From IMG/VR virus record IMGVR_UViG_2565956719_000002: a stretch of 64,000 nt of DNA. The stretch is one strand, 5' to 3'. Numbering within the stretch: the stretch's first letter is position 1; each line of letters begins with the position of its first letter. Positions 980 to 34,863 of this stretch are shown here, piece by piece. A program made the translations under genes and the position numbers. The DNA comes from a virus. Taxonomy: Duplodnaviria; Heunggongvirae; Uroviricota; Caudoviricetes. The notes under the pieces are model-generated. The model worked only from the letters and a program-made list of their open reading frames with translations. It was not told where the DNA came from and did no database searches.

Positions 980-984
980 TATAA

Positions 985-1500: not shown

Positions 1501-1553
1501 ATCCCTACCTATACCAACGATGTATTTTTAACTAAACAAAGAGGTTGTTTTTC

Positions 1554-2849: not shown

Positions 2850-2871
2850 GAGAAGTTACTTTGCATACCAT
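2850..2871 (+). promoter_or_regulatory. Late-promoter-like element (weak variant)
   Basis: GAGAAGTTACTTTGCATACCAT aligns with the motif shared upstream of lysozyme, portal, pacA and the baseplate block. Confidence 0.3.
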
Positions 2872-2899: not shown

Positions 2900-3229
2900 G
2901 TGCTTGACACACAGGAATTAGCTCCAGTTGCTATTGCGCTCCTGCTTTCAGTAATTGGTGGGATAGGCACGTTCCTGATGGATGTCCGAGACGGTCGCCA
3001 GTCTGGCAATTTGTTGGGATTGGTTACGGAGATCTTTGTTGCAGTGACAGCTGGCGCGGTGGCGTACCTATTGGGGCAACACGAGGGCTGGGAGTTATCA
3101 ATTACGTACTTAATGGTAACGATAGCCAGCAATAACGGTCATGAGGTGATTTCAGGGATGAAACGAGTGAATATCGATAGCATTCTGAATGTTCTTACAA
3201 GTTTGGTGAAAAAGGGAGGCGGGAAATGA
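2900..3229 (+). CDS. lydA: Holin (LydA-like)
   Basis: 109 aa, hydrophobic segments, GTG start; position relative to lydB/darA-like genes. Confidence 0.55.
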   Translation: MLDTQELAPVAIALLLSVIGGIGTFLMDVRDGRQSGNLLGLVTEIFVAVTAGAVAYLLGQHEGWELSITYLMVTIASNNGHEVISGMKRVNIDSILNVLTSLVKKGGGK

Positions 3230-3669
3230 TTGGCTGGGGTGTATGCGTTCTTGCGTTAGCCTTAGCCGATCGCTATTTGCTAAAACGCAAGGACATCACG
3301 CATTTAGAACTTGGTGATGTGGAAATTAAACCGGGTTTCATCCGGGTGCCGTTCAAATACCGGTCTAAATTCCCGTTTTTGCGCGGCGCAACGGTCAGAT
3401 ATTGGATCCGCGATGTTCAGAAGCCGACGACAGTGATTGAAGGCGAACAACGTTGTTTGACGTCGGCTGAACAGGGCGAAAACAGTGAATGGTTGTACAT
3501 ACCCACTGAATATATGGGTAAAGGAGAGCGACTGTGGCATTTCAACGTCATGGTTACGCATGGCGACTCGTTCATTAACCCGTTGTATCGGATTTTCCCT
3601 GTTACTCAGCAAATCCGCAGAAGTTACGTAATAAATCTCGCACAGGATGTGTCAGATGACGAAAAATAA
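3226..3669 (+). CDS. lydB: Antiholin-like protein (LydB-like)
   Basis: 147 aa, N-terminal hydrophobic segment, start overlaps holin stop. Confidence 0.5.
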   Translation: MIGWGVCVLALALADRYLLKRKDITHLELGDVEIKPGFIRVPFKYRSKFPFLRGATVRYWIRDVQKPTTVIEGEQRCLTSAEQGENSEWLYIPTEYMGKGERLWHFNVMVTHGDSFINPLYRIFPVTQQIRRSYVINLAQDVSDDEK

Positions 3670-4258
3670 GTATGCAACGGTCGATTTTGACCAGGTTAAT
3701 GAAAAGGGGCTGAAATCCCTTATCGCGGCGATCAATAAAACCGGTGTTACGGTAATTGAGGTTGACTCCAGCAACCGCGCAACAACGAAAGATGGCGTTA
3801 AAGTTAAAACCGCAAAGCTGGTTCTTAACGACGGACAAATTCTTGCCATACAGGTAAACGATACTGGCGATATATCGTCTGTGAGGCTGAATGGAAAAGC
3901 TATTCCTAACGCTCAATCGCCGGATATCAAGACGCTTGGTACCGTCATGGGGCAAGCGGCCCGCAAAAACTCCGCAAAATTCCAGAAATCACTGATCGCC
4001 AAAGCGAAACGTGTTGCCAATCCGGTAGACAAGAAACCGGCAGTAAAATCCAATTTTCAGCGCCTGCAAGAGGCAAAACAGCGGAATGCTCAGGTGGTTG
4101 CCGCTTATAAATCAGCGCAGAACTCGGTGTCTTTCAATCAACAGCAGATCACTGATTTGCGGGCGAAGCTGGATAAGGAGACAGGCCGACTCAATAACGA
4201 AAAGGCCCGAAATGGCGAACTCAAACGCCGTCTTAAGCAACTGAAAGCAGGAAATTAA
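3647..4258 (+). CDS. hdf: Hdf-like protein (paralog of a DarA segment)
   Basis: 203 aa; shares a KNSAKFQ-containing coiled-coil segment with the downstream 639-aa protein. Confidence 0.55.
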   Translation: MCQMTKNKYATVDFDQVNEKGLKSLIAAINKTGVTVIEVDSSNRATTKDGVKVKTAKLVLNDGQILAIQVNDTGDISSVRLNGKAIPNAQSPDIKTLGTVMGQAARKNSAKFQKSLIAKAKRVANPVDKKPAVKSNFQRLQEAKQRNAQVVAAYKSAQNSVSFNQQQITDLRAKLDKETGRLNNEKARNGELKRRLKQLKAGN

Positions 4259-4259: not shown

Positions 4260-6179
4260 ATGGAACAGTTCAATATCAATAAAGGGGTGACGATCAAGCC
4301 TGGGCTTGACGTGCTTCCCCCGCCAGTGACTGATGATGAATATCGCGCATTAATGGCCGGTGAGGACCGCTATCTGATGACGGAATCCAACACCCTGGAG
4401 GAAATCGAGGCTACGTTCTTCTATGACACGCCGATCCACTGGTGTGCTACGGATTTACTGGAGGCGATTAGTTCTACTCGTTTGCAGTTACACCGGACCA
4501 TGCAGGCATTTGTCCGGGCATTGAACCAGAAGCTGAATGGTACCGGAATCTCTGCGGGGAGTGATAAAACGGGGGATGTGGCCCAGAGCGGCGCGCGCGC
4601 GATCGGCGGCGCTGAAATTGGCCGGGCACGTAACGTTAACGGGCTGCCGGTCTTGCCAGCCATTATTCCGCTCAGTGATGGTCAGACTATCAGCATTCTG
4701 TTTCATAGCCCGACAGCGGAAAACCGGATCACCAATAGCGATACGCTGGTTGCTTTCCAGTTCTTACTGAATAAAAAAGACGTTACTCACACCGTTGCTC
4801 CGATGAGTGGACGTGATATGACGCTGGCGCAGGTCACCATGAAACTTGCCAACCTTGCAGAGAAAAACTCGGCAAAATTCCAGCGTGCGCAGAAGAAGAA
4901 AAAAGCCCTTGTTGATGAAATAACCCAACTACAGGCTGACAGTGACCAGAAAGAGGATGCCATGAGCGACCTCGCGGATCAGGTGGCAGCGGTAGAAGGG
5001 CAGAAGGCAGATCTGGAGCAGAAAATTAACGCTGTTGCATCGGAAGCGGATTCTCTTTATGAAGAGAATGAGCGTTTGCAGACGGAGATTGATCAGCTCA
5101 ATCGCACTGGTGGGCGCGATACCATTGCTCCAGCGGGGATGACTGGTGGGCACTCTCGCGCGCTGACGGATCGCCTTGCCAGTATCAAAAATCGTATGCA
5201 TATGGACGGGGAAGTGACGCTCAGTAATGGTGCATCAATGAAGCAATTCATTGGGGGCGGCGAAGGGTATATCCAGTTAACCGATCAGGATGGCAGCGTA
5301 TACATGATCAAGGCTAAATCCATACAGGGTGTGGACATGGCAGATGCGATCGGCAAGCTGTTTAAAGCCTATAAAGCGGGTAATGTATCGGAATACCTGG
5401 TCCAACCAGAAGAACATAAACCGGAAAACGTCGAACCTGAACCAGCGGAGGATACCGGTAGCTCTTCGCCTGAACCAGAAGTCTCTGTAGGTGCATATCG
5501 ATATGCCCTGCAAATGCGTCCGGCGGCCCCTGGCGCAATACCTGAAGGTAACAAAGCAATTCTGCCGCGCCCTGATGAAGGTGACCCGTATTATGAATAT
5601 GCACGCTACGGCATTGCTACTTACGATACCCCGCTTTCTGATCAGCAAATGAGTGAGTACGACCTGAAGTTATTGCCTCGCGAGGATTCTTTCGACTTCC
5701 TGGCGAAGACACTTACTAATGGTCCGTTTGGCAAATATGCACAAAAAACTCTGGATCTGGCCACCAGCTCACCAGACGAGTTCCGCGTAATGCTGAAAAC
5801 TCAGTTTCAAAAAACTTTCCCCAATATTGCGTTTCCGGGGGGCGCTGGCACCGAGAAAATGGTGCAGAGCATGATCAATACATTGCAGGCCGAAGTCGGT
5901 GAGATTACTCAGCCAGAACCGGCCCCGGCACAGCCTGATGAAACGGTTAGCGAAGCAGATGCAGAGGCTAATAAAGCCATTGAATATCTCAATAACGTGA
6001 TGGATATGCAAAGCACTGACATGGCGGAGATCCGTAACGCTCGGGGCAATGTCCGGGAAGCGATTGCAGCCCTTCAGGCTGCCGGACGTTTTGAGGAAAA
6101 CGAAGAGCTGGTTAACGGCGCAGCTCGCCACCTGGCTGATCTGTTGGTAGCAATCCAGAAAGCGGGGGTAGCGGCATGA
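4260..6179 (+). CDS. darA: DarA-like head-internal anti-restriction protein
   Basis: 639 aa, coiled-coil middle, acidic stretches; operon context hdf-darA-ddrA-ddrB. Confidence 0.65.
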   Translation: MEQFNINKGVTIKPGLDVLPPPVTDDEYRALMAGEDRYLMTESNTLEEIEATFFYDTPIHWCATDLLEAISSTRLQLHRTMQAFVRALNQKLNGTGISAGSDKTGDVAQSGARAIGGAEIGRARNVNGLPVLPAIIPLSDGQTISILFHSPTAENRITNSDTLVAFQFLLNKKDVTHTVAPMSGRDMTLAQVTMKLANLAEKNSAKFQRAQKKKKALVDEITQLQADSDQKEDAMSDLADQVAAVEGQKADLEQKINAVASEADSLYEENERLQTEIDQLNRTGGRDTIAPAGMTGGHSRALTDRLASIKNRMHMDGEVTLSNGASMKQFIGGGEGYIQLTDQDGSVYMIKAKSIQGVDMADAIGKLFKAYKAGNVSEYLVQPEEHKPENVEPEPAEDTGSSSPEPEVSVGAYRYALQMRPAAPGAIPEGNKAILPRPDEGDPYYEYARYGIATYDTPLSDQQMSEYDLKLLPREDSFDFLAKTLTNGPFGKYAQKTLDLATSSPDEFRVMLKTQFQKTFPNIAFPGGAGTEKMVQSMINTLQAEVGEITQPEPAPAQPDETVSEADAEANKAIEYLNNVMDMQSTDMAEIRNARGNVREAIAALQAAGRFEENEELVNGAARHLADLLVAIQKAGVAA

Positions 6180-6541
6180 CACTATCAGCTATTGAGTTAA
6201 TGGATCTCAGCGATAAGTTGGATGCTCTGATGTCCAAAGCGGCTACCGCGAGTGGCATGGAGTTGCTGGATATCAGCGATGAAATTGACCAGATCATGCA
6301 ACAGATGGGGTACGGTGTGTCCGGCGGCAGTAGTGGCGAGGAAAAACAACCTTCGGTACATGATGGTGTGCCAAAACTGGTTGCTGATTTCCTGGCTGAT
6401 AAATTCGTCGATCAGAGCACCGATGCATTTATCGGTACCTTGCAGGATTTGAGTCAATATGTTGGCACATACATCGACCTGGACCAGGTTAAACAGCACA
6501 CGGCGGCATGGATAGCCGCCAACATTAAAGAGGCAGCATAA
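6176..6541 (+). CDS. DdrA-like small acidic protein
   Basis: 121 aa, start overlaps darA stop. Confidence 0.45.
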   Translation: MTLSAIELMDLSDKLDALMSKAATASGMELLDISDEIDQIMQQMGYGVSGGSSGEEKQPSVHDGVPKLVADFLADKFVDQSTDAFIGTLQDLSQYVGTYIDLDQVKQHTAAWIAANIKEAA

Positions 6542-6553: not shown

Positions 6554-9541
6554 ATGAGCTTAAGCGATCAGGTGGTGATGGCCACCAGCATAGAAACGCT
6601 GATCGAGCTGCTAAAAAACCTGCCCGATTACGGGCGGGTTTCGTATGTGGTGACAGCGAAGGGAGACGAGGTAAAAACAGCGTTTGATATCGTCGATGCC
6701 TCAGCTCTTTTGGTATCCAATACTCTGGATGGGAAAATTAATCCAGACTATCCCCAGGAACTTCAGCCGCGCGACCGGACCCGCGCATCCAGCCTTCTTC
6801 AGGTCAACCAGATATCCAAGGATTTGCGTCCTGCCCAGCTTACCGACTCCGGTTTATCCAGCCATGGCGCGCCGATAATTGGTGAGGACAATGCCATTGA
6901 GTCAGGTAATGGACGGACCATGGGGATCATCAAAGCCTATCAGGACGGCAATGCGGATCGGTATCGTGAGTACCTGATTAAACATGCGACCGAATTCGGA
7001 ATACGACCTGAAAAGGTTGAATCAATGACGGCTCCGGTACTGGTGCGCCGCCGGTTAACGAAGGTTGACCGTGTTCAGTTTGCCAAGGACTCAAATATTT
7101 CTGATCTCCAGGAAATGGCAGCCAGTGAAAAGGCTTTTGTTGATGCCGACAGCATAACTCCGGCGATGATGGCGCTGTTTAACCCATCAGAAAGCGGAGA
7201 TCTGCTTAGCCGCAGTAATGACGCGTTTATTCGCGGATTCATGACGCAAGTTGGTGCCACACAGGCTGCTGGCCTTGTAACGGAAGATGGGCGACCAACA
7301 CGGCAACTTGTTGACCGTATACAAAACGCGATCTTTGCCAAGGCATATAAGGATGCGCGCCTGGTAAGGATGGTTGCAGAAGAACCTGATCCGGATATGC
7401 GTAATGTTCTGACGGCGCTTAATGCGGCAGCCAATGATTTTGTCCAGATGCAGGCTTTATCAGGAGAAGCGCACAAGCAGGCTGTGACAACTATTGTTGA
7501 TGGCATTGAGACAGCGGATAGCCTCGATAAAAAGGCGCTGGAGGCATTGAAAGATGCGGTAGACCTGGTAAGGCAATCGAAGGAGTCAGGCCAGCATATT
7601 ACCGATGTTATTGCTCAGGGGGATATGTTCAGCGAAACGGCCCCGGAAGTGAAAGCACTCGCGTTGTTCATCGTCGCGAATAACCGTAGCGCGAAGCGTA
7701 TGGCCACCGCCTTTAAGTTGATGGCTCAACGTATCAATGATGAGTTACAGCACCAGGGCCAGGCGCTGGGGGATATGTTTGGCGGCGGCGATGTGTCGTT
7801 ACAGGATATCCTTCGCCAGGTGTCTCAGGAACTGGAAAACGAAGGCATGCAAGGGATATCCGGCGGTCTTTTCGAGTCCGTTTCCGGCGGTAGTTACAAC
7901 GGTGTTGCTCCATATACCAGCTTGCTATTACATCGGGCATCCGGCATCAAAGATATTATTCATCTGATCAGGCTGCTTTCCCGTGCAGATCCCCAGGATG
8001 AACAGCTTGTTCAAGTGCTTGCGCATTTTGTTCGAATGCCTGTTGCCGACGTGAAAAAATGGTGCCGATTATTCGGTATCAGCAATTCGTTACTTCGCGG
8101 CTTGTTAAATCACGCATCCTCCCTTGGGCGCGATGGCTTTGACGAGATAGCGCAGGCGATAAAAAACGGAGATATGCCACCAGCTATTGACTGGTTTTCC
8201 ATTCGCCCAACCAGGGTGAAAGCATTCCTTAGCGCGGCGCATTCGGCATCACCATTGGCAGAAATGGTTCAGAGGTTGTCGCTCATATTCACAGACCATA
8301 CCGCGTTGGGTGATCTGACTCTGGACGAGATGAAAGACGCCTCCATTCAGTGGGCCGATCAACAAAATGAGGTTAACTCAGACTTCTTGCCAGCATTCAG
8401 GAAGGCCGTTAGTAAAGCGGATGATGCCCGTGGAATTCTGAAGGCATTTAAGGCATTGCAAAGTCGTGTTAATAAACATGTCGGTGATATCGATGGGGTA
8501 ACGGCGGAAGGCCGGGATATCCTTAAAGAGCACGGCATAACGCCAGAGTTTATTGATGAGATCAGGACTGATATGCAGCGTGAGGTCGTATCGTCCCTGC
8601 AAATCGTAGCCAGAGCGTTGGCGGATGCTAATCCGAAGAGTGCGGCCATTGTTAACCGGGTTATTGGTGATATTGAAGCATCGGAGGGCATGGGGGCGCT
8701 GAAACTCTTCCTTTCGCGAGCGTTTAATCCTAACGGCAATATTCTCCCTGGCATTATTGGTGAGGCTAAAAAGTATGTCAGTGAAGAAGAACTTGAGCAG
8801 CTTGACCAACTACTTAAGCGATTCTCATATAATCCGCAGACACGCTGGCAAATGAATCAGCGAAGTATGGGTTCGGTCCACGAGAAAGTGTTATCTGCCA
8901 TGAACAGTGCGATCGCCAACTCATCCGTATCTGAAGAAAAAGCTCTTGAGTGGGCCGACTCTTTTATCACGGAAGAAGTGGAAGAAGCCCGCGCTGGACA
9001 GAATGGTGGGATAGACCTGCGCAAGGAACTTGCTGATATTTATCGCCTGACCGGCGGTAAAATTTCGACCTTATCAAAGGTGGTTCACCACCAGGGAAGG
9101 GCATATGCAAATCTTAATGGTGTTGTTGCTGTCGATTTGCACGATGAAAATGCAAATGCACTGTGGCACGAGCTGGGTCATCATCTTGAGTACAGTAACC
9201 CGGGTTTGTTAGAGAAAGCCAGGTCATTCCTGAAGGCCAATGTTGAAGGGGATAAGCCATCTTTCGTTAATATTGGTGGGCGTGGCAAGCCTGAATGGTG
9301 CTTCAGATCTCGATTGAGTGATATTTATATGGCGAAGGTATACCCGCCAGCCTCAGTAAGTAACACCGGGAAAATTCGGCAGAAATCACCGACTATTTCC
9401 AAAACGTCAGCAACGGAAGTATTCTCTATGGCTCTTCAGTTGTATCATGACAAAGAGGCCGCTGCCGCATCACTGATGAATGGTGACGGATTGCTGGAAC
9501 TGTTATTAGGTGTGGCAAAGGAGCTAAATAATGCAGATTAA
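6554..9541 (+). CDS. DdrB-like large head-associated protein
   Basis: 995-aa ORF continuing the darA operon; position only. Confidence 0.5.
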   Translation: MSLSDQVVMATSIETLIELLKNLPDYGRVSYVVTAKGDEVKTAFDIVDASALLVSNTLDGKINPDYPQELQPRDRTRASSLLQVNQISKDLRPAQLTDSGLSSHGAPIIGEDNAIESGNGRTMGIIKAYQDGNADRYREYLIKHATEFGIRPEKVESMTAPVLVRRRLTKVDRVQFAKDSNISDLQEMAASEKAFVDADSITPAMMALFNPSESGDLLSRSNDAFIRGFMTQVGATQAAGLVTEDGRPTRQLVDRIQNAIFAKAYKDARLVRMVAEEPDPDMRNVLTALNAAANDFVQMQALSGEAHKQAVTTIVDGIETADSLDKKALEALKDAVDLVRQSKESGQHITDVIAQGDMFSETAPEVKALALFIVANNRSAKRMATAFKLMAQRINDELQHQGQALGDMFGGGDVSLQDILRQVSQELENEGMQGISGGLFESVSGGSYNGVAPYTSLLLHRASGIKDIIHLIRLLSRADPQDEQLVQVLAHFVRMPVADVKKWCRLFGISNSLLRGLLNHASSLGRDGFDEIAQAIKNGDMPPAIDWFSIRPTRVKAFLSAAHSASPLAEMVQRLSLIFTDHTALGDLTLDEMKDASIQWADQQNEVNSDFLPAFRKAVSKADDARGILKAFKALQSRVNKHVGDIDGVTAEGRDILKEHGITPEFIDEIRTDMQREVVSSLQIVARALADANPKSAAIVNRVIGDIEASEGMGALKLFLSRAFNPNGNILPGIIGEAKKYVSEEELEQLDQLLKRFSYNPQTRWQMNQRSMGSVHEKVLSAMNSAIANSSVSEEKALEWADSFITEEVEEARAGQNGGIDLRKELADIYRLTGGKISTLSKVVHHQGRAYANLNGVVAVDLHDENANALWHELGHHLEYSNPGLLEKARSFLKANVEGDKPSFVNIGGRGKPEWCFRSRLSDIYMAKVYPPASVSNTGKIRQKSPTISKTSATEVFSMALQLYHDKEAAAASLMNGDGLLELLLGVAKELNNAD

Positions 9542-9842
9542 AATCGCAGCGCCATTAGGCGGAGATGCCATTATCGAATTTGATGATAATGAAGAAGTTT
9601 CCGGGCGTTTAAGCATTATCTCCGGTGACATTACCGAGGACATGATCGCTGAAGCCATAGCTGGGGCAAATCCCAATAGCTATATGGGATTCGTTAACAC
9701 CCTTGATGCTCCCGCAAGTGATGTTCTCCGAACGCTGCATCTTTACGCTGGCTGGTTTGTTGATTGGCCAGCAGTAGATGGTGGCGATGAGGACGACGAC
9801 GACGATGATTTTGGTGATCATGTAGACCAGATCGTATATTGA
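9531..9842 (+). CDS. Small acidic protein with poly-Asp tract
   Basis: 103 aa, AAGGAG upstream, start overlaps ddrB-like stop; C-terminal GGDEDDDDDDFGDH. Confidence 0.4.
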   Translation: MQIKIAAPLGGDAIIEFDDNEEVSGRLSIISGDITEDMIAEAIAGANPNSYMGFVNTLDAPASDVLRTLHLYAGWFVDWPAVDGGDEDDDDDDFGDHVDQIVY

Positions 9843-9845
9843 AGA

Positions 9846-9870
9846 AATCCCGCCAATTGGCGGGATTTTT
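9846..9870. terminator. Rho-independent terminator between convergent operons
   Basis: AATCCCGCCAATTGGCGGGATT hairpin followed by TTTTT. Confidence 0.7.
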
Positions 9871-9873
9871 ACC

Positions 9874-13425: not shown

Positions 13426-13453
13426 AACCCCGGCAGCTGCCGGGGTTATTTTT
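13426..13453. terminator. Rho-independent terminator (bidirectional position)
   Basis: AACCCCGGCAGCTGCCGGGGTT hairpin plus T-run, between lysis genes and convergent protease gene. Confidence 0.7.
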
Positions 13454-13458: not shown

Positions 13459-16189
<2,731 letters not shown>

Positions 16190-16222
16190 TTAATTAGAAT
16201 AATTCGCATCGTGTTTGAACGG

Positions 16223-16245
16223 AAATTTAACACTAGTCACTTGTT
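16223..16245 (-). promoter_or_regulatory. Late-promoter-like element upstream of portal gene
   Basis: Minus strand AACAAGTGACTAGTGTTAAATT in the 76-bp divergent region. Confidence 0.35.
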
Positions 16246-16256
16246 AAGGATTACCA

Positions 16257-19200
16257 ATGAACAAGCTATCTATGGGGGTGTTTCGCTGTTCAAGTGTCAG
16301 CGAAATATTGAAATACATTAGGGCAATAACATCTCACCGAGCGCCGATTAAATACGGCGTGGAAAAGGTGGAAGGCAAAAGCTATGACCGACTGCGCCGT
16401 GAGGCGAATCAGAAGGCGATAGATTTGCTTAATTCGCTGGTGGACGGCGCGACACTGACAGATGAACAGCGCCAGATCCTGGCTGGGTACACCGGTGAAG
16501 GCGGCATTGGCGGGTCCGTCTCCGAATATTACACACCAAAGCCGATCGCTGAAGGTGTCTGGGAGATCATGAAGCTCTACGGCGCGGACGTAGGTAACAC
16601 TCTGGAACCATCGGCGGGAACCGGCGTTTTTAATGAGACAAAACCGGTTGGTACGGTGATGACCGCGACTGAGATCAGCAGTGTTTCCGGTCGTATAAAC
16701 CAGCTGTTGCACCCGGAAGACAGCGTACAGATTTCTCCGTTCGAACAACTGGCTGTAAGCACGCCTAACGATTCATTCGACCATGTTGTGGGTAACGTTC
16801 CGTTCGGTGGTCGTGATAACACACGCAACATCGATAAGCCTTACGCAGAAGAAACGGACATGGGGTCTTACTTCATGCTCCGCATGCTGGACAAGATAAA
16901 ACCTGGCGGATTCATGTGTGTGATTGTGCCGCCGTCCATTGTTTCAGGTTCAAACATGAAACGGTTACGCCTGCGCCTATCACGGAAAGCTGAATTTCTT
17001 GGTGCCCACCGCTTGCCTACCGGTACTTTTGACGCAAACGGGACCAGTACAGTTGTTGATGTGGTGCTGATGCGCAAACATCCGGCAGAGATGGCTGAGA
17101 AAATCCCCCTGGTGGATGAAAGCACTCTCGAATCGGCAAATGTGCTTTGGCCAACGTTTATTTCTGGCAAGTGGTTTGAAAAGGACGGCCGCCGGTTTGT
17201 TCATGGCACCCAGGAAAAGGGCTTCCAGGGGCGTATTGAGGTTCGTGCCGACGGTCAGATTGATAACCAGGCTCTTAAAGCGAAGCTGATTCATCGTTTC
17301 GAAAGCCGTATCGACTGGTCTTTGCTCGATATGGCTGAACCGTCACCGACCGCAGACGTTGTTGGTGAAGGGGAAATGCGCCTGATTAATGGCGTATGGC
17401 AAAAATATGCTGGTGGTCGCTGGATTGAAGCTGATGCAGGGAAGGAACTTAAGATCGATGCTGCCAGTTATGGCGCGGATAGCTGGGAGGCTCTTCAGCG
17501 TAACCTGACTACAACAGAAGGCCGTCTCGGCATGACATTTACCCAGATGGCAAATGTCCGCGATAAGTACACCACATCAATCAGCGACGATATGGTGCAG
17601 CTGGTGGACTGGATTAACAGCCAGCCTGAAAAATACCGTGAACGCTTGTATCGCGGGGCGATGATTGGCCGGATGTTAATTGAATATCAGGACATGAAGG
17701 CCGCCGGGCATAGTGCTGAACAAATCGAACAGCAGCGCCTTTCTCTGGTATCCCGTTTGCAGGCAGAGATTGACCGTTTTGGTAACCCCGGTCGCGGTCC
17801 GATAGCGAAATTATCGGGGAGCGGTGCGCGCGCCTGGTTTGCTTTCCGTGGTGCAATTAAGCTGGATGGCACTATTTCTGACGAGCTGACAGGAAAACTG
17901 GTTACGCATGATTCCAGCGCCAGTTATGACTCCACCAGCTATCAGGACACCCTGCGTTATCTCTACAGTGATCTCACTCGCGATCCAATCCAGCTCGATG
18001 ATTTCCGCCTTGCGTTTACCGGCGAACTGCCAGCCAGTGATGACGAGTTGCTTAATTTATTGGCCAGCACCCCTGGCATTGCGGTTTCACCGTATGGCGG
18101 GATTGTTCCGTTCGCCCGCGCCACCAGCGGCGACATTAACGAGATAGTGGCTCCAAAACAGGAATTCCTCGCCACGCTCCCCGACGGTCCAGTAAAGAAC
18201 AACGTCCTTAATCAGCTGGCAGCGATCGAAGAGAAGCGCATCAAGACGCCAGCAGAGAATATCCGCTTTAAGCTCAATAGCCGTTGGTTCGACCGTTCCG
18301 TCATTCTGGAGTTTTTGCAGGAAAACGGCTATCCGGATCTGCGCTATGTGCAGTCAGTGCAGCTGGAAGGCGACGAAATGGTTTCTGACACCTATCACGG
18401 TGGTGATGGCCTGTTCGTCGGGCACCGATACGGTGTCGTCCAGCGTAAGGATAAAGAAACAGGCGAGATCCGCTACGAGTGGGACCGTAAATCAGGTGAA
18501 AACGCGACCGGGTTCCCGGCACAGCTGGAAAAGTATCTCAATGGTGCGCGTATCGGTGGCAAAGATAGCGCGACGGCGAACGGCTACCGCGAGCAGATGG
18601 CACTGCTTGAGGACCAGTTCAATAAGTGGATCAAGACGCACGATCGCTACGATGAGCTGGTTGCTAAATACAACGATGTGTTCAATAGCAATATCCCGTA
18701 TGAACACTCTGGCGATCCGCTTGGGTTGAAGGGATTAAGCGGTAAGCGCCAGCCATTTGATTACCAGAATAGCGAGGTGCGCCGACTGTCCGAAGATGGG
18801 CGCGGCATCCTGGGCTTCGGCACCGGGCTGGGTAAAACCACGACCGCGCTGGCGCTTGAGGCGTTCAACTATGAGAACGGTCGCTCCACCCGTACTGCGT
18901 ATGTAGTGCCTAAATCAGTGCTGGAAAACTGGTATTACGAAGCAAAAGAATTCCTGAGTGAAGAGGCATTCAGTAACTACCTGTTCGTCGGTCTTGATGT
19001 GCTGATGGATGGCGATCAGATTCGCCAGGTGCAGGTGCTCGATGAGAACGGTAAACCTGTTCTTGGTACTGATGGCACTCCAGTTATGCGCGATGCTCTT
19101 AAGCTGGCAGATGAAGCCACTATCACGGCGCGGATGAACGCGATCCCGCACTCAAATTACCGTGCAGTCGTGTTTACCAAAGAACAATACGCCCGCATTC

Positions 19201-22200
19201 CGCTACGTGATGACACCGTAGATGAGCATGCACAGGATATGCTTTATGACTTCGTTGCCGCCGGACGCGTAGCCAGCGCAATGGACTCCGACTCCCACCG
19301 CAAAGAGGCCGCGCGTCGCCGGGTATTGTCGGAGTATTCAGATACCGGCACCGAAAAAGCAGAGAAGTATCCGTACTTTGAGGATATGGGCTTCGATAGT
19401 GTGATCGCTGACGAAGGTCACAACTACCGCAATAGCTATAAAAATGGTCGCGAAGCGTCACAACTGGCCTATCTGCCCACCAGCGCGGTGGCGCAATCGG
19501 CGCGAGATATGGCAATTAAAAACGCGTACCTGATGAAAAAGAATGGTGGGCGCGGGCCGGTTCTCCTGACTGCAACGCCAGTCGTTAACACCCCGATCGA
19601 TGCATACAACATGCTTTCTCATGTTCTGCCGAAGGAATACTGGCAGAACATGGGGATCTACGGTCCTGATGACTTCGTTAAATTCTTCGGCAAGACCAGG
19701 CTGGAAACGGTACAGAAAATTAGCGGTGAAGTTGAAGAAAAAATGGCGCTGGTGGGCTTTGAAAACCTTGATGCGCTGCGCGGTATATTCCATCGCTGGG
19801 TAACGCTTAAAACGGCGGAAGACGTTAAGGATACCGTGGAGATCCCGGAGCTGGACGAACACCAGCAGGATGCACCACTTACTGAAGAACAACTGGCGGC
19901 GTATGAAGAATTGCGTCAGCAGGCGGAAGCGGCGGCCAAAGCCAACAATGGCGTAACGACCTCGGTCAATGAAGACGGCGTGATTGAGCACGAGAAAGCC
20001 CGTCCGATCTTCTCAATAATCAGGGATATGGACCGCGTATGTACTGACATGGACCTGTACTATCGCCGGATCACCTATCGTTTCCTGCCGGAGTACGCCG
20101 ATGCGGTGCAGCAGCTGGCGGACAGTTTGCCTAAACAAGCCACCAGCGAAGACGACGACAGTGATGATTTAATCACGCAGCAATCGCAATACTCCCTGAT
20201 AGATAAGGGCGAGTTTATTCAGTTGCAGGTTCCGGAAGCGTTCGAGCAGGAAGTGAATAAGCGCCTGGCCAGGTTTGGCATTGACGAACAGACCGTAACT
20301 CACCCCGTTACGCCCAAATACGCGAAGCTGATTGCCACGCTGAAGGAGTTTTTCCCGGAAGGTAAGCAAATCATCTTCACCGATGAAAAAACGCAGCACC
20401 AGAAGCTCAAGCGCATTATCTGCAATGCTCTTAACCTTGAACCTTCAAAGGTGGGGATACTGAATGCTCAGACGGTTGCCGAGGCAGGTAAAACCGGTAA
20501 GAAACTGAAAGCGGTTAAACCGCCGAAAGAGTTACCGGATGAACCAACAGATGCACAGATAGCGAAATACAACGAGCAAATGGCTCTGTATGACGCCTAT
20601 ATCGCGCAGCAAAATGAAATGTCGTTGGGCGGTCTGGAAAAGATTGCAGCCGACTTCCAGGAGGGCCGGACTCCGATCATCATCTGCAACAAAAAGGCAG
20701 AGGTGGGTATCAACCTGCATCGAGGAACGACTGACATCCATCATCTGACGTTGCCATGGACTCCAGCCAGTATTGCGCAACGAAACGGTCGCGGTGCCCG
20801 AGTTGGCTCCAACCGTGCAAGCGTTCGCGTTCACTACTACTGCGGCAAGGGGTCTTTCGATGAATACCGACTGAAGACGCTGAAGCGTAAAGCAGGCTGG
20901 ATCTCCGATATCCTCCGTTCAGATAAGTCAGAAATGGAGAACGCCGACGCCAACGATATGATCGAAATGCAGATGTATACCGCGAAGGATGACGGCGAAC
21001 GTCTGGCAATGATGCAGGTTCAAATGGATAAGGCGAAAGCTGCGAAACGCGCTCGCCAGAAAGAACAGGCTACTATCGACCTTCAGAACTACATCAAGGC
21101 GCAGCACGCAGCTGGTGAGGATGTGGAGGTACTTACCGCTGAATTGGAGCGAAGCAAAGCGGAACTTGAAAAGACCACCGCCGACGTCGCCAAATTCAAA
21201 CAGGCGGTAATGGCCAAAGCAGCTGATAACGCAGACTGGAAAGCCCGCTGGGGTAGCGTCCATCACACAGACCGTATGTTGTTATCACAGTATCGCGCGT
21301 CGTTGAAAAGCGCCATTCAGCGCAAGGCTAATATCTCTCAGGCCATCTCCCGCTATGAGAAATTATTGAACCGTACTCAGAAGGCCGCGACGGATATCAA
21401 ACGCCTGCGCCCGCTGGTGGAGGATGCAATAAATAAAGGCATTCTGGATGTTGATCCTGACCTGGTTAACCATGCGAGTGAGTTCCTTGTTATCGGCGAT
21501 CGCTCATGGCGTGTAGGCCAATACTACGATTGTGCCGGTGATATCGTTCGCATTAAGTCGCTGGACTTCGACAGCCAGCGCGCAGACGTGGAGATCATCT
21601 TTACCTTCAAAGGCACCAAATCGGGTAACTGGGATGTGAAGACGCTGGATAAACAGGTGGATGTAACTCCCGATGAAGATGCTGTTATGCAGAAAATCAG
21701 TGGTGGCGTCTCCATCGCCGGGATTAACGACATCATTTCCTGTGACGATTTCTACCGTTTCCAGCAGCGCGGCATGATCAAAATAACTGACTCGTACGGC
21801 GTTCAGACTACAGAGTCAGGCTATAGCATTGATTTTGTTGGTACCTATACGGACCCACTGAAGCATGCGGTTTACCCGGATCGCCGTGACGGCGCGCTGA
21901 AGTCGTCAATTGCAAAATGGGTGCTTGGTATGATGTCGGAAGGGAATAACCGCCAGATCCGTTCGGCAGAAACATTCCTGGTTGAATTGTTTGGCTCCAA
22001 TTATGGCGATGTAATCGCGTCATACGGAGATACGCTATCCCCTGAAGCAATTCAGGAGAAAATAGCGGATGCGATCGCCAGAATGCCGGAAAAAACAAGC
22101 CAGGGGGCTACTCGTAACGGGGATTCTGAACTTGAAGTCACCAATGCCATTTTCGGTACCAATGAGTTCCGGGGGTCAGATTATGAGATCACCACAGCAC

Positions 22201-23024
22201 AGTTTGGCACCATTGGCATTTACAGCAATAAAGCCGAGATCAAGCAGGCAATGGACGCAGCAAGCGCGCGCATCGCAGCAGAACGGGAAGCCAATCTGAA
22301 TCATGCAGTCGCCGCGCTGACTCAATCGTGGGTAACAGCAATCAGGGAGGCCGCCACCACAGGGAAAATCACACCTGCAATAGCGGATGTCGTAAACGAC
22401 GGCTCTAAATTTATGGATGCCTATCAAATGGATGCGGTGAAGTTGCCATCAGCCTATGGTCAACTCAGCTATCGCATGACCTACAACCTGGTATCAATGT
22501 TTTCCGACCTTGCCATCCTTGGGCTGGTGGATCTTAACGAGGTTACGCCGGAATTGCTCAGCATGCGCAAGAATCATGTGGAGATATTGCAGAGAATTAA
22601 CACGGTTCTTGCCGGGCGCACCGATGAAGAGAAACAGGCCGACGCTGATCGGATAAACCTAGCCCTTGGCAACATCACGGAGGAAGAGATTGCCGCCAGA
22701 AACGAGAAACAAGAAGAGTTATCATCAATACAGGGTGATGCCACCAGCATAGCTCAGTCTCTTGGTCTGAATTATCGCGTATCCACCGCCGACCTGAAGA
22801 TGATGTACGCACCAAAATTCGCCGCTGGCGAGGTATTTGGGCTTCAGGAAGCCTCAGGCATGAAAGGCGTTCTTTTCCGTGCGAAAGACGCAATCAAGGC
22901 GAAATTCGGCGCTCGCTGGCTGCCAGCGAAGGCGAAGAACAGCGATTTCCCGGGTAACTGGTGGATTATCGAGACAAAACACAACGTGGCGGACGTTCTG
23001 GCCGTCATCCAACAATACGCATAA
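16257..23024 (+). CDS. darB: DarB-like giant anti-restriction protein: N-terminal N6-adenine methyltransferase-like domain plus helicase domain
   Basis: 2255-aa ORF; LEPSAGTGVF and GNVPFGG methyltransferase-like motifs; helicase Walker A GFGTGLGKTT and DEGH box; size matches P1 DarB as recalled. Confidence 0.8.
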   Translation: MNKLSMGVFRCSSVSEILKYIRAITSHRAPIKYGVEKVEGKSYDRLRREANQKAIDLLNSLVDGATLTDEQRQILAGYTGEGGIGGSVSEYYTPKPIAEGVWEIMKLYGADVGNTLEPSAGTGVFNETKPVGTVMTATEISSVSGRINQLLHPEDSVQISPFEQLAVSTPNDSFDHVVGNVPFGGRDNTRNIDKPYAEETDMGSYFMLRMLDKIKPGGFMCVIVPPSIVSGSNMKRLRLRLSRKAEFLGAHRLPTGTFDANGTSTVVDVVLMRKHPAEMAEKIPLVDESTLESANVLWPTFISGKWFEKDGRRFVHGTQEKGFQGRIEVRADGQIDNQALKAKLIHRFESRIDWSLLDMAEPSPTADVVGEGEMRLINGVWQKYAGGRWIEADAGKELKIDAASYGADSWEALQRNLTTTEGRLGMTFTQMANVRDKYTTSISDDMVQLVDWINSQPEKYRERLYRGAMIGRMLIEYQDMKAAGHSAEQIEQQRLSLVSRLQAEIDRFGNPGRGPIAKLSGSGARAWFAFRGAIKLDGTISDELTGKLVTHDSSASYDSTSYQDTLRYLYSDLTRDPIQLDDFRLAFTGELPASDDELLNLLASTPGIAVSPYGGIVPFARATSGDINEIVAPKQEFLATLPDGPVKNNVLNQLAAIEEKRIKTPAENIRFKLNSRWFDRSVILEFLQENGYPDLRYVQSVQLEGDEMVSDTYHGGDGLFVGHRYGVVQRKDKETGEIRYEWDRKSGENATGFPAQLEKYLNGARIGGKDSATANGYREQMALLEDQFNKWIKTHDRYDELVAKYNDVFNSNIPYEHSGDPLGLKGLSGKRQPFDYQNSEVRRLSEDGRGILGFGTGLGKTTTALALEAFNYENGRSTRTAYVVPKSVLENWYYEAKEFLSEEAFSNYLFVGLDVLMDGDQIRQVQVLDENGKPVLGTDGTPVMRDALKLADEATITARMNAIPHSNYRAVVFTKEQYARIPLRDDTVDEHAQDMLYDFVAAGRVASAMDSDSHRKEAARRRVLSEYSDTGTEKAEKYPYFEDMGFDSVIADEGHNYRNSYKNGREASQLAYLPTSAVAQSARDMAIKNAYLMKKNGGRGPVLLTATPVVNTPIDAYNMLSHVLPKEYWQNMGIYGPDDFVKFFGKTRLETVQKISGEVEEKMALVGFENLDALRGIFHRWVTLKTAEDVKDTVEIPELDEHQQDAPLTEEQLAAYEELRQQAEAAAKANNGVTTSVNEDGVIEHEKARPIFSIIRDMDRVCTDMDLYYRRITYRFLPEYADAVQQLADSLPKQATSEDDDSDDLITQQSQYSLIDKGEFIQLQVPEAFEQEVNKRLARFGIDEQTVTHPVTPKYAKLIATLKEFFPEGKQIIFTDEKTQHQKLKRIICNALNLEPSKVGILNAQTVAEAGKTGKKLKAVKPPKELPDEPTDAQIAKYNEQMALYDAYIAQQNEMSLGGLEKIAADFQEGRTPIIICNKKAEVGINLHRGTTDIHHLTLPWTPASIAQRNGRGARVGSNRASVRVHYYCGKGSFDEYRLKTLKRKAGWISDILRSDKSEMENADANDMIEMQMYTAKDDGERLAMMQVQMDKAKAAKRARQKEQATIDLQNYIKAQHAAGEDVEVLTAELERSKAELEKTTADVAKFKQAVMAKAADNADWKARWGSVHHTDRMLLSQYRASLKSAIQRKANISQAISRYEKLLNRTQKAATDIKRLRPLVEDAINKGILDVDPDLVNHASEFLVIGDRSWRVGQYYDCAGDIVRIKSLDFDSQRADVEIIFTFKGTKSGNWDVKTLDKQVDVTPDEDAVMQKISGGVSIAGINDIISCDDFYRFQQRGMIKITDSYGVQTTESGYSIDFVGTYTDPLKHAVYPDRRDGALKSSIAKWVLGMMSEGNNRQIRSAETFLVELFGSNYGDVIASYGDTLSPEAIQEKIADAIARMPEKTSQGATRNGDSELEVTNAIFGTNEFRGSDYEITTAQFGTIGIYSNKAEIKQAMDAASARIAAEREANLNHAVAALTQSWVTAIREAATTGKITPAIADVVNDGSKFMDAYQMDAVKLPSAYGQLSYRMTYNLVSMFSDLAILGLVDLNEVTPELLSMRKNHVEILQRINTVLAGRTDEEKQADADRINLALGNITEEEIAARNEKQEELSSIQGDATSIAQSLGLNYRVSTADLKMMYAPKFAAGEVFGLQEASGMKGVLFRAKDAIKAKFGARWLPAKAKNSDFPGNWWIIETKHNVADVLAVIQQYA

Positions 23025-23057
23025 CAGGAGCGCCCGGTTCGCCGGGCGTCGCATAAT

Positions 23058-23498
23058 ATGGCCACACTATCTGATACAATAAAACCGAATAAAACATATC
23101 TTGAGGCGGTACTCCGTACAGCGTTGTTAGGAAAGACAGAAGACGAATACGTTGATTTCTTCCTGTCAGGGCTACGCGGGCGATTACTGAAAAATCCCCG
23201 CCTGTACCGCAGCTATGGCCCATACTGGCCGGAAATTAAAAAATTATTACTGGAGCGCGGTTATGGTAATTTCGGTCGTCTCGTTGACCGTGACGTTCGC
23301 AAATTTTACCGTTATGACCGCCCGGCGCTAACACTCATAGCCGCGACGCTCTACAGCCAGGAGCGTTTTGATAATGGTCAGATATACTCAGCCTGGCATT
23401 TACTGCCAGTGCCTGAAGAAGTTGACGACCAGGACTATGAGTTTGAGTCTTACGATTTGGAAGTTGAAGCCTTGGCACAGGCTGGAGAGAAAACTTGA
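23058..23498 (+). CDS. Hypothetical protein (position of P1 ulx)
   Basis: 146-aa ORF directly after darB. Confidence 0.4.
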   Translation: MATLSDTIKPNKTYLEAVLRTALLGKTEDEYVDFFLSGLRGRLLKNPRLYRSYGPYWPEIKKLLLERGYGNFGRLVDRDVRKFYRYDRPALTLIAATLYSQERFDNGQIYSAWHLLPVPEEVDDQDYEFESYDLEVEALAQAGEKT

Positions 23499-23743
23499 AA
23501 AAGCGATACTACACAGTAAAGCATGGGACGCTACGAGCATTACAAGAGTTTGCTGACAAGCATAACGTTGAGGTGCGCAGGGAAGGGGGAAGTAAAGCTC
23601 TGCGCATGTACCGTCCGGACGGGAAATGGCGTACAGTCGTCGATTTCAAAACAAACAGTGTTCCCCAGGGCGTCCGCGACCGGGCATTCGAAGAATGGGA
23701 GCAGATCATCATAGATAACGCATTGCTCCTGAATGCTGATTAA
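23495..23743 (+). CDS. Small protein (position of P1 lxc, C1 co-repressor)
   Basis: 82-aa ORF overlapping previous stop; assignment by position only. Confidence 0.35.
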   Translation: MKKRYYTVKHGTLRALQEFADKHNVEVRREGGSKALRMYRPDGKWRTVVDFKTNSVPQGVRDRAFEEWEQIIIDNALLLNAD

Positions 23744-23756
23744 ACTTTCCGCCCTT

Positions 23757-23777
23757 TTGCCCGGTCTATCGCCGGGC
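23757..23777. terminator. Hairpin after the darB operon
   Basis: GCCCGG-TCTATCG-CCGGGC stem-loop with weak T-run. Confidence 0.35.
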
Positions 23778-23782
23778 ATCTT

Positions 23783-24424
23783 TCAGAGATAATTACCTTT
23801 ACCCGTCAATTCCCCTTGTGGTACTTGTTTTTGCGCCAGTGTTTGGGTTCCGCGAATTATGTTAATCAGAGGGCTTAGTAACGATGGTTCCTGGCGTGCC
23901 TCAACTTCTCCAGCCATTGCCCTGATGTAGTCGGCGCTGGCAACGTTGTTGTATTCCGTTGCGAAGCAGCATAACAACGTCAGAACATGCTCTGTCGTTA
24001 TTTCGCTCCAGTTGATGTTGAAAAATTCATCGCCTTTTTTATCGTGTTCGGAATCGAAGATGCTTTGGTGGAGGATGTATTTGCCGGATTCCTTGCGCGG
24101 TAACTTGATCGCTTTCTGGCGTTCCAGCTCCTTGTAAATCTGCATTGCTTCAATCAGTACCGGCCTGCCGTTCATGAAGGGATCGCGCAACCTTACACGC
24201 TGGCCAACTCGACCAGTAATAAAGCTGTTTTCCTCTTCCACCAGCACGATAAAACCCTTTTCCTCTTTTTCTCGCAATTCGCGCAGCAGCTGGAGTTCCA
24301 TATCGCGGCGGCGTTCAGGGTAGCTGGTCCGCTCAGCCATTATTAGCTCATTGTTGATCCATGCGGCAGTCATTGACGCCGGTTTGCCGACGCTCATCGA
24401 AACAACGCATATTTTCTTATCCAT
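23783..24424 (-). CDS. Hypothetical protein (accessory region)
   Basis: About 213 aa from ATG (MDKKICV) with AGGGG upstream; no recognisable motif. Confidence 0.5.
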   Translation of the reverse strand: MDKKICVVSMSVGKPASMTAAWINNELIMAERTSYPERRRDMELQLLRELREKEEKGFIVLVEEENSFITGRVGQRVRLRDPFMNGRPVLIEAMQIYKELERQKAIKLPRKESGKYILHQSIFDSEHDKKGDEFFNINWSEITTEHVLTLLCCFATEYNNVASADYIRAMAGEVEARQEPSLLSPLINIIRGTQTLAQKQVPQGELTGKGNYL

Positions 24425-24683
24425 AGCGCCCCTACAAAAAAGAAAAGCCACCAGCGGCGGCTTAGCAATACAACTGAAGGTAGCGCCCGGTACTCAGACT
24501 GTGCCGTCCATGGAATATTTGAAAAGGGATCCATCCGTACCGGGCGTGTGATGATTCTGACTCAAGTCACTTGTCAGTTGTCAATCATTTATCATTAAAA
24601 ATAATATATTTATTAGTGCATACAAATAAGACACTAAGTGTGCACATTGCAACCTCAGAGAGGAAACATTCAACCAGCCTGTA

Positions 24684-25018: not shown

Positions 25019-25240
25019 ATGGTTAATGCCAATCCTTGCGCACGCCCTGAATTCATCTGGCGCTTTTACTCCTGCCAGAAACGTCACTATCACTTCGTTA
25101 TCGCACCAACAGAAGATGAGGCACGTTCTCAGCTTCCGGATGCTCCCTGTATTTTCTCTGCCCGCTTTTCTACCGATTTGCGCAATTCTCTCAGTTACTG
25201 GTGCCTCCCTGTTAACGCTTCTGCTCAGGAGGGGCTATGA
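25019..25240 (+). CDS. Leader protein coupled to antirepressor A (icd-like position)
   Basis: 73 codons, GAGG upstream, stop overlaps ant start (ATGA); inverted copy at 31086-31312 differs by 14 synonymous codon changes and one amino acid. Confidence 0.55.
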   Translation: MVNANPCARPEFIWRFYSCQKRHYHFVIAPTEDEARSQLPDAPCIFSARFSTDLRNSLSYWCLPVNASAQEGL

Positions 25241-26295
25241 GAACGTCATTAGTCACCCGTGAAGAGATGATCGAGGCAATTGAACAGCACACTGCCTGTA
25301 TCAGTACCAGGGATATACCTGGCGTTATTGCCAACTACTTCATGATCACCAAACAACTTTACCGGAGAAAGGACAAAAACGCGGTTCACCGCATTCTGCT
25401 GTCTGATATCCGTGAATACCTGCTCGAACAGGGGCATCTGAATTACGCAACCGTCGCAGCCGAAACACGCAAGGAGGCACACAGAATGAAAGCAAGCAAA
25501 CCAGATGTTGTCGTTACAAAGCCTTTGACAGCAACCACACCAGCAACGGCCATGGATGCTATCCCCAACACCGGAGACACAATCGACAGCCAGACGCTGT
25601 TAAAGATGGTCAATGAAGCGCGGAAATTATGTAGCGAAAAACCAGTTCGCAATAATGATTTTATTGCCAGAGTTAAGGATGAACTGGATGGTGAGTACTA
25701 CGAAATTTTCGTAGTGCAAAAATTAAACAACACAACATCTGAAACTATCTCCATGACCTACAAACAAGCCCTGCGAGTTGCCGCGCGCGAGTCAAAAGCG
25801 GTCCGCCGTTCGCTGATCGACAAACTGGAGGAATTGCAGCAGGCTAGCACTGCTTCTCCAGTGATTCCCCAAACACTCCCCGAAGCTCTGCGCCTGGCTG
25901 CCGAGCTGGCTGAACAAAAGCAACTTCTGGAACAGAAAGCCCACCAGCTAAATCAGCAGCTGGTGGCCGCCGCTCCTAAAGTCGATTTTGCCGACCGGGT
26001 ATCAGTAGCTAAAGGGATCCTGATTGGGAATTTTGCAAAGGTTGTTGGACTTAAGCAAAACGCGCTGTTTGCCTGGTTACGGGAGAACGGCATCCTGATA
26101 GCGTCCGGTGGACGTAAAAATGTGCCGTTCCAGCAATACATCAACGCTGGGTATTTTTCTGTGAAAGAAGTGGTGCTGGATGATGAAGATGGCTATCAGA
26201 TACGACTGACGCCCCAGTTAACGGGGAAAGGCCAGCAGTGGTTGACGCGTAAACTGCTCGATGCTGGCTTGTTAAAACCGGTGGCGGCTGAATGA
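25237..26295 (+). CDS. Antirepressor-like protein A (KilA-C-type C-terminus)
   Basis: 352 aa; C-terminal NFAKVVGLKQNALFAWLRENGIL...PFQQYINAGYF typical of phage antirepressor C-domains; N- and C-termini near-identical to copy B, middle unrelated. Confidence 0.7.
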   Translation: MRTSLVTREEMIEAIEQHTACISTRDIPGVIANYFMITKQLYRRKDKNAVHRILLSDIREYLLEQGHLNYATVAAETRKEAHRMKASKPDVVVTKPLTATTPATAMDAIPNTGDTIDSQTLLKMVNEARKLCSEKPVRNNDFIARVKDELDGEYYEIFVVQKLNNTTSETISMTYKQALRVAARESKAVRRSLIDKLEELQQASTASPVIPQTLPEALRLAAELAEQKQLLEQKAHQLNQQLVAAAPKVDFADRVSVAKGILIGNFAKVVGLKQNALFAWLRENGILIASGGRKNVPFQQYINAGYFSVKEVVLDDEDGYQIRLTPQLTGKGQQWLTRKLLDAGLLKPVAAE

Positions 26296-34410: not shown

Positions 34411-34863
34411 TCAGATACGTGCGGATGTGGCATTACCGTAATGACGGTGCTGACGGACCACCTTATTGAAAAGTTGACGCGCCATCACCCAAGGCTGGTG
34501 CTCCCGGCGTTCCTTTTCGTCCTGCGTCATATAGAGTTCGTTCTGGAGTTTTTCATCAAACCGGCGCGGAGCGCGGCTGCGGCGAAAGAATTCAGGATTC
34601 AGAGAGTGGATCTGAAATCTACGTGGGCGTGTACTGTCATCAATCAAAACAGACGAATACTTAGACACAGCGATAGCCTTTAAGCGCAGATAAACATCGC
34701 GCTTATCGACATCCAGATGCGGGTATTCCTTTTCAAGAATTGCTGCGAGTTCTTTCGCTGATAGAAGAGATTTAGTGCGGATCATGTAATCCGCAATCTC
34801 GTACGATGTTATTCGTGAGTGATTTATTTCCATGAAGTGGCGTCCCTGCCAGTTAAGTAACAT
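34411..34863 (-). CDS. lpa: Late promoter activator (Lpa-like)
   Basis: 150-aa ORF immediately upstream of pacA, preceded by an operator-like box; assignment by position and size. Confidence 0.55.
   Translation of the reverse strand: MLLNWQGRHFMEINHSRITSYEIADYMIRTKSLLSAKELAAILEKEYPHLDVDKRDVYLRLKAIAVSKYSSVLIDDSTRPRRFQIHSLNPEFFRRSRAPRRFDEKLQNELYMTQDEKERREHQPWVMARQLFNKVVRQHRHYGNATSARI

Follow-up and report, generated by a model that had tools for sequence, protein, structure and literature searches.

The Dar system of phage P1, reportedly described by Iida in 1987, Piya in 2017, Gonzales in 2022 and in a 2026 paper on the structure of DarA and Hdf, provides the reference for the locus analyzed here: darB, a gene encoding a protein of 2255 amino acids (aa) in a 64,000-nucleotide stretch of viral DNA (IMG/VR record IMGVR_UViG_2565956719_000002; the whole stretch is referred to as the window). 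In P1, the capsid-packaged Dar system comprises the proteins Hdf, DarA, DdrA, DdrB, Ulx, and DarB (PMC9024508, PMC12810830). Packaging into the procapsid starts with Hdf and DarA, followed by DdrA, DdrB, DarB, and Ulx, with DarB added late and reaching ~40 copies per head (PMC9024508), and the early packaging of Hdf and DarA is required for the packaging of the other Dar proteins (PMC12810830). The N-terminal 30 residues of DarB suffice to direct a reporter into the capsid, and DarB incorporation is assisted by DdrB and by Ulx, the role of the latter being given in Table 1 of that study (PMC9024508). The Dar proteins exit the head with the DNA and provide protection in cis only, on the co-packaged DNA (PMC12810830, PMC12707154). 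DarB counters EcoK and EcoB (PMC9024508); protection against these type I enzymes needs DarB, Ulx, and DdrB, while protection against EcoA needs DarA and DdrA (PMC9024508, PMC12810830, PMC12707154). DarB has also been presented as the archetype of a dyad of methyltransferase and superfamily 2 (SF2) helicase among the 'polyvalent proteins' (Iyer et al. 2017, PMC5512222).

Judged by its sequence, the gene in the window is the orthologue of P1 darB, beyond the 'DarB-like' label of the preliminary description, because 2231 of the 2255 encoded residues (98.9%) are identical to P1 DarB, the two proteins are collinear with 24 substitutions and no gaps, and the synteny is shared (prt divergent upstream, ulx and lxc downstream). 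The giant open reading frame (ORF) that had been reported was recovered exactly as claimed, from an ATG at 16257 to position 23024 on the plus strand, with 2255 codons and a stop, and the PHROG 1685 profile covers the protein from end to end (aa 1–2255). The DarB proteins of P1 (AAQ13985.1, AF234172) and P7 (AAQ07489.1) are likewise 2255 aa without insertions or deletions, and both genes share with the window the 30-aa N-terminal targeting signal, the catalytic motifs, 11 Chi sites, the late promoter LPpro, the predicted promoter PdarB, an intragenic operator-like site, and the same neighbors. None of the substitutions relative to P1 falls within the catalytic motifs or within residues 1–30, 13 of the 24 lie in the C-terminal third (P = 0.015), with four clustered at aa 1901–1909, and the ratio of nonsynonymous to synonymous change (pN/pS) is 0.09 against P1 and likewise against P7. 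A megablast comparison of positions 16000–23200 with phage records identified the window as part of a P1-type (Punavirus) phage-plasmid, with full-length matches of 98.1–98.9% nucleotide identity to Salmonella phage SJ46, several Escherichia phage P1 isolates, P7, RCS47, and other Punavirus members; over the locus, P1, P7, and SJ46 are at 98.3–98.9%, the annotations beneath these matches are darB, prt, and ulx, and the flanks match the Punavirus family as a mosaic.

All six genes of the P1 Dar system are present and intact in the window at 96–99% identity (Table 1). The Hdf/DarA/DdrA/DdrB-like operon noted in the preliminary description was borne out both by identity to P1 and by independent PHROG and Pfam profiles, and lydA, lydB, hdf, darA, ddrA, and ddrB have the exact P1 lengths with no frameshift and no internal stop. 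The operon had been described as full and as lying in cis to darB, together forming the capsid-packaged anti-restriction system. The four partners are indeed present, on the same strand of the same replicon and 6.7 kb upstream of darB, but each locus forms a transcription unit of its own, hxr, two unknown ORFs, ssb, lyz, lydD/E, pro, and prt lie in the interval, and the sixth component, ulx, which begins 33 nt past the darB stop and overlaps lxc by 4 nt, had been overlooked. Lxc (100%) and Pro (99.7%) are identical or nearly so to P1, neither with an internal stop or frameshift. The window shares with P1 the six genes, the operon layout, LPdar, and lpa, and in these respects nothing substantive appears to differ. 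It is thus very probable that this is the darB of a Punavirus phage-plasmid with a complete, intact Dar system; no evidence against the identification of the gene was seen.

The order of methyltransferase-like motifs followed by an SF2 helicase core, as first proposed, holds: both are present in DarB, each motif finding its counterpart in EcoKI HsdM or in SNF2 ATPases, and neither signature is degenerate. Pfam matches above the curated cut-offs comprise N6_Mtase (aa 145–291), Eco57I (aa 166–244), SNF2-rel_dom (aa 849–912; 42.6 bits, cut-off 24.9), ResIII (aa 833–904), and Helicase_C (aa 1455–1517; 27.8 bits, cut-off 23.5). The best solved-structure match for aa 88–267 is the EcoKI M subunit HsdM (PDB 2y7c, 2ar0; E 6e-6), in which YFTPRP corresponds to DarB YYTPKP (the TP cap, T93-P94), DPAAGTAGF to EPSAGTGVF (motif I, E117-P-S-A-G-T-G-V-F125), and NPPFG to NVPFG (motif IV, N180-V-P-F183). 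The helicase aligns to the SNF2 ATPases SMARCAD1, SsoRad54-like 1z63, and INO80 through motif I (GLGKT, G857-L-G-K-T861), motif III (LLTATP vs LLTGTP, T1105-A-T-P1108), and motif VI (QRNGRGARVG, Q1508...R1512...R1515), with motif II at D1052-E-G-H1055. A family alignment of 24 full-length members, the most distant at 38% identity, with sources that include Salmonella, Enterobacter, Pantoea, Xenorhabdus, Edwardsiella, Plesiomonas, and Aeromonas, revealed invariant residues in the methyltransferase (T93, P94, E117, P118, G123, F125, N180, V181, P182, and F183), in the helicase (G857, G859, K860, T861, D1052, E1053, H1055, A1106, T1107, P1108, Q1508, R1509, R1512, and R1515), and in the N-terminal GEGG motif at aa 80–83 (G80, G82, and G83). 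Because NVPF is invariant in all 24 members, it reads as a family-fixed variant of NPPF, with valine in place of proline at the second position of motif IV and no sign of decay.

While DarB shares the TP cap, motif I, and motif IV with EcoKI HsdM, it differs in its low identity, in NVPF instead of NPPF, in having no HsdS/HsdR partners, and in its fusion to a SNF2 ATPase, and it does not belong to a type I restriction-modification system. DarB also resembles the polyvalent-protein dyad (PMC5512222), which it matches in order, with an LPD36 N-terminal helical domain bearing GxGU (G80-E-G-G83; LPD36 being assigned by motif and not by profile score), the methyltransferase, and the SNF2 ATPase. Further, DarB shares with the dyad the TP cap and N-x-P-F of EcoKI/TaqI-like gamma-class methyltransferases and a SWI2/SNF2 ATPase with long inserts in each lobe, which place motif II ~140 aa after motif Ia and motif V ~350 aa after motif III. 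Unlike many polyvalent proteins, DarB carries no further Pfam effector domains and has instead two large regions without a recognizable fold.

The packaging and protection features described for P1 would carry over to the window proteins through their 96–99% identity, and the invariance of both the HsdM-like methyltransferase site and the SNF2 translocase site across the family argues for a model in which DarB acts as a translocase. DarB would ride the entering DNA as an ATP-driven double-stranded DNA translocase and would either methylate adenines in advance of the type I enzymes, as modeled in PMC5512222, or obstruct or dislodge those enzymes. Translocase-coupled methylation is ranked slightly above blocking or displacement, although its likelihood is judged to fall just short of even. 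Several points weigh against this specific biochemistry. The mechanism of DarB 'has not been defined' (PMC11109961) and 'remains unclear' (PMC12707154), and neither methyltransferase nor ATPase activity has been demonstrated for DarB in the literature (PMC11109961, PMC12707154). Plasmid-borne darB with mutated catalytic residues, and even with a premature stop, still relieved EcoKI restriction via a DNA-mediated Chi/EcoKI-site effect; since the DNA alone gives this relief, such plasmid assays are uninformative on the protein (PMC11109961). Additionally, motif IV is NVPF instead of the canonical NPPF, though family-invariant, and one methyltransferase would need to cover enzymes with different recognition sequences, EcoKI and EcoBI.

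That last difficulty, that a single specificity hardly spans both sets of sites, also favors the alternative in which DarB protects without methylating. DarB would then coat or translocate along the DNA and occlude, stall, or strip type I complexes, with the HsdM-like domain only binding DNA or S-adenosylmethionine (SAM) or serving as a decoy for enzyme subunits. The restriction of Dar protection to cis has led to an occlusion hypothesis (PMC12707154), ~40 copies per head fit a stoichiometric role (PMC9024508), and among solved structures the methyltransferase domain comes closest to the M subunit of EcoKI, an enzyme that DarB counteracts. Conversely, the SAM-binding and catalytic residues (E117, P118, G123, F125, and N180-V181-P182-F183, with the T93-P94 cap) show no variation down to 38% identity, which would be unexpected of a structural or decoy domain, and 40 DarB molecules are too few to coat ~100 kb of DNA. 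Protection without methylation is a credible possibility, though on balance a doubtful one.

Chi enrichment is a known feature of P1, and the window follows it, with 50 Chi sites (GCTGGTGG) in 64 kb (17 on the plus and 33 on the minus strand) where ~1.6 are expected from base composition. The 11 sites in darB (6 plus, 5 minus; ~0.2 expected), as in P1, raise the possibility that darB-linked anti-restriction stems from the DNA and not from the protein, through a Chi-rich darB that triggers RecBCD/RecA-dependent, ClpXP-mediated alleviation of EcoKI. Plasmids with stop-containing fragments of darB do relieve EcoKI restriction in a manner dependent on Chi and EcoKI sites (PMC11109961). This effect, however, acts in trans and has been shown for plasmids, whereas phage Dar protection operates in cis through virion-packaged proteins and disappears when ulx, ddrB, darA, or hdf is mutated even though the darB DNA is retained (PMC9024508, PMC12810830, PMC12707154). 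The enrichment extends across the window and is not specific to darB, and the pN/pS of the gene shows selection on the protein, making a DNA-only origin of the protection very improbable. The window holds 8 EcoKI, 11 EcoBI, and 1 EcoAI sites, with no EcoKI site in darB.

Two further readings retain almost no probability. The closest phage record, SJ46 (NC_031129, 48880–55632), splits darB into two coding sequences (48880–53361 and 53542–55632), which reflects either a gene interruption or a sequencing error in that record, and databases also hold shortened DarB versions of 1623–2065 aa, but a decaying remnant is ruled out for the window, where the frame runs open through 2255 codons, aligns to P1 without gaps, and keeps every motif intact, with purifying selection also evident. 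Equally negligible is a plasmid-borne defense or restriction-modification component (type I/III-like, DISARM DrmD, Zorya ZorD, Dpd, or BREX PglX-like), which was rejected because the DrmD, ZorD, DpdE, MTase_I, and PglX profiles match only weakly and locally, below threshold and at the level of single domains (50–190 residues each, 17–44 bits against curated cut-offs of 500–1100, with PADLOC matches local and <=40 bits), the partner genes of such systems were not found next to darB, and the full-length matches are P1 DarB and PHROG 1685, for a gene placed with conserved synteny in the head-morphogenesis region.

Conservation along DarB is uneven when regional identity is averaged against 21 homologues of <=50% identity (Table 1). 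AlphaFold2 models built on the 24-sequence family alignment gave a predicted local distance difference test (pLDDT) score of 78.5 for aa 286–835, confident at aa ~405–815, and a mean of 84.9 for aa 1545–2255, confident at aa ~1575–2255, the latter arranged as a three-helix coiled-coil bundle (~1579–1726) followed by a beta-rich domain, then helical ones, and finally a small alpha/beta domain at the C-terminus. Foldseek searches of the models against the PDB, and of the C-terminal model also against BFVD, found nothing at E < 0.02, although whole-fragment queries may mask domain-level matches; the same runs returned only generic coiled-coil or tape-measure-like hits with template modeling (TM) scores <= 0.13. 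The two confidently modeled regions, ~55% of DarB, thus appear to lack a known fold. The engine-like parts are 57–58% identical with invariant active sites, compared with 21–26% conservation of the C-terminus, where 13 of the 24 P1 differences fall, and from this contrast DarB might be viewed as a conserved 'engine' (HsdM-like methyltransferase and SNF2 translocase) joined to a fast-evolving C-terminal 'adaptor' of ~700 residues. This is a speculative division that is considered unlikely; if true, the C-terminal third would be an arms-race surface that determines the range of host restriction or BREX systems countered by DarB, or the way DarB docks to the Dar scaffold.

The expression of darB is less readily explained than its identity. 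The 76 bp said to separate darB from the divergent portal gene are real (16181–16256, with prt at 14471–16180 on the minus strand), the window having one extra A relative to the 75 bp of P1 and P7. The further claim that the darB promoter must overlap the portal leader agrees with the curated P1 record, which carries PdarB, but 'must' expresses a deduction, about a promoter that is itself only predicted, and the lack of a late promoter facing darB had gone unmentioned. The predicted PdarB consists of a -35 element TTGTCT (16171–16176) within prt codons 2–4 and a -10 element TAGAAT (16196–16201) within the prt leader, separated by a 19-nt spacer, and a generic promoter scan placed an overlapping candidate at 16174–16203. 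The prt gene itself has a Shine-Dalgarno sequence, AAGGTG, 5 nt upstream of its TTG start. In the opposite orientation, the -22 box AAGTGACTA (16234–16242) and -10 element TAAATT (16224–16229) of LPpro lie within the darB 5' untranslated region, 15–33 nt upstream of the ATG. LPpro is thereby interleaved in the 76-bp gap with PdarB, the sole candidate promoter for darB.

A pattern generalized from four late promoters that are annotated in P1 recovered LPdar (2853), LPlyz (12504), LPpro (16242, minus), and LPmat (24572, minus), and a scan of the window with this pattern found no late promoter facing darB. One further match to the pattern (AAGTGACTGGTGATAACCT) occurs at 53227 on the plus strand, with no gene attributed to it. 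For the darA operon, the presence of both LPdar and lpa is consistent with Lpa-dependent late expression. Read-through into darB from LPlyz was rejected on account of a strong plus-strand hairpin and T-run at 13426–13447 after the lysis genes; with a 9-bp stem that includes 7 G-C pairs and a position at the convergent junction of lyz-lydD-lydE (plus) and pro (minus), the hairpin is likely the terminator for LPlyz transcripts. Because no late promoter faces darB and this terminator-like hairpin argues against the LPlyz route, the sequence does not reveal how DarB, with ~40 copies per virion, comes to be expressed late. A 17-mer within darB that resembles a C1 operator is identical in P1 and P7, though annotated in P7 only, as 'hypothetical Op(pro)'; this putative site could tie the expression of darB, prt, or both to the C1 repressor.

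Table 1. Features of the Dar loci and associated genes in the window. Mean identity is given for DarB regions.
Feature	Position	Strand	DarB residues	Mean identity	Remarks
LPdar, late promoter of lydA-lydB-hdf-darA-ddrA-ddrB	2853..2871	+			-22 box AAGTTACTT, then TACCAT; same position as LPdar in AF234172
lydA	2900-3229	+			100% identical to P1 LydA
lydB	3226-3669	+			98.6% identical to P1 LydB
hdf, Dar component and head-size determinant	3647..4258	+			203 aa; 98.5% to P1, no gaps; PHROG 'Hdf-like antirestriction' E 4e-80
darA, internal head protein needed to incorporate other Dar proteins	4260..6179	+			639 aa; 98.1% to P1; Pfam DarA_N E 4e-42, DarA_C E 6e-17
ddrA	6176..6541	+			121 aa; 95.9% to P1; PHROG 'DdrA-like anti-restriction' E 1e-57
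ddrB	6554..9541	+			995 aa; 98.4% to P1; Pfam ddrB-ParB domain E 4e-39
prt, portal	14471..16180	-			569 aa, TTG start; 99.1% to P1 Prt; PHROG portal E 2e-261
PdarB, predicted sigma-70 promoter	16171..16201	+			Annotated as predicted in AF234172; sequence identical in window
LPpro, late promoter driving prt-pro	16224..16242	-			Annotated in P1 and P7; conserved in window
darB	16257..23024	+	1-2255		2255 aa and stop
Capsid-targeting signal	16257-16346	+	1-30	0.24	No substitution vs P1; function predicted by analogy with P1
C1-operator-like 17-mer	16311..16327	-	codons 19-24		ATTGCCCTAATGTATTT; 3 mismatches to consensus
LPD36-like helical region with GEGG motif		+	31-90	0.57	Motif at aa 80-83
Gamma-class N6-adenine methyltransferase	16527-17156	+	91-300	0.58	Pfam and HsdM alignment
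Helical/beta region		+	301-830	0.37	AlphaFold2 model
SNF2-type helicase	18747-20936	+	831-1560	0.57	Pfam and SNF2 alignment
Region following the helicase			1561-1730	0.26	
Three-helix coiled-coil bundle		+	~1579-1726		AlphaFold2 model
Remaining C-terminal region			1731-2255	0.21	
C-terminal domains		+	after coiled coil, to 2255		AlphaFold2 model
ulx, sixth Dar component	23058..23498	+			146 aa; 99.3% to P1; PHROG 'Ulx-like anti-restriction' E 2e-65
cre	26905-27936	-			99.7% identical to P1 Cre
lpa (gp10), late-promoter activator required for LPdar and LPpro	34414..34863	-			tblastn 99.3% over all 150 aa to phage 813R1 Lpa

The arrangement around darB extends to distant relatives. Elements of Enterobacter, Xenorhabdus, and Aeromonas, with DarB at 40–48% identity, keep pro and prt divergent from darB and a ulx-like gene downstream, with prt-darB gaps of 74, 79, and 163 bp. 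In Aeromonas salmonicida (CP110646, 14788–18426), a 1212-aa gene with a ddrB-ParB domain lies ~2 kb downstream of darB-ulx on the opposite strand, and the two Dar loci are therefore much closer there than in P1.

Outside the Dar loci, the window departs from P1 in several places. In P1, the interval from lxc to mat holds ~6 kb with the EcoP1 type III res/mod genes; in the window these genes are wholly absent at 23743–24451, tblastn found no match to P1 Res anywhere in the window, and 39 bp separate the lxc stop from mat. The same spot holds a RelA/SpoT gene in SJ46 and four unnamed genes in 813R1, which suggests a site for variable cargo, with nothing inserted in the window. Within mat (23783–24534, minus), P1 Mat aligns in two frames, aa 1–44 at 24534–24403 and aa 31–250 at 24445–23786, which leaves a 222-aa ORF from a GTG; as SJ46 and 813R1 also annotate a shorter Mat (213 aa), the 250-aa Mat of P1 may be the odd one out. 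The isaB and IS1 segment of P1 is replaced at 9840–10945 by ~1.1 kb of unrelated sequence, with no IS1 there, and the replacement contains a 364-aa ORF (9874–10968, minus) with no Pfam match. The P1 ref/c8 region is replaced by an ORF with a KilAC (ANT) antirepressor domain (25237–26295, plus), which together with a second such ORF (29974–31089, minus) flanks cre.

The gene is extremely common: 810 plasmids in PLSDB match darB, 697 of them at >=95% identity, and the 90%-identity protein cluster of DarB comprises 16,340 sequences. The preliminary annotation is correct, yet the anti-restriction system is a textbook one, and the window adds one more copy of the Dar system found in hundreds of sequenced P1-like plasmids of E. 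coli and Salmonella. What is new is minor, namely the confidently modeled regions that appear to be without a known fold and a C-terminal third that, by the regional comparison, seems to evolve fastest. The residual questions, late darB expression and the fast-evolving C-terminal third, concern P1 in general and not the window. The intact Dar system predicts that type I restriction barriers would be passable for this phage-plasmid and for DNA transduced by it, and the crossing of such barriers bears on the spread of resistance-carrying P1-like plasmids.

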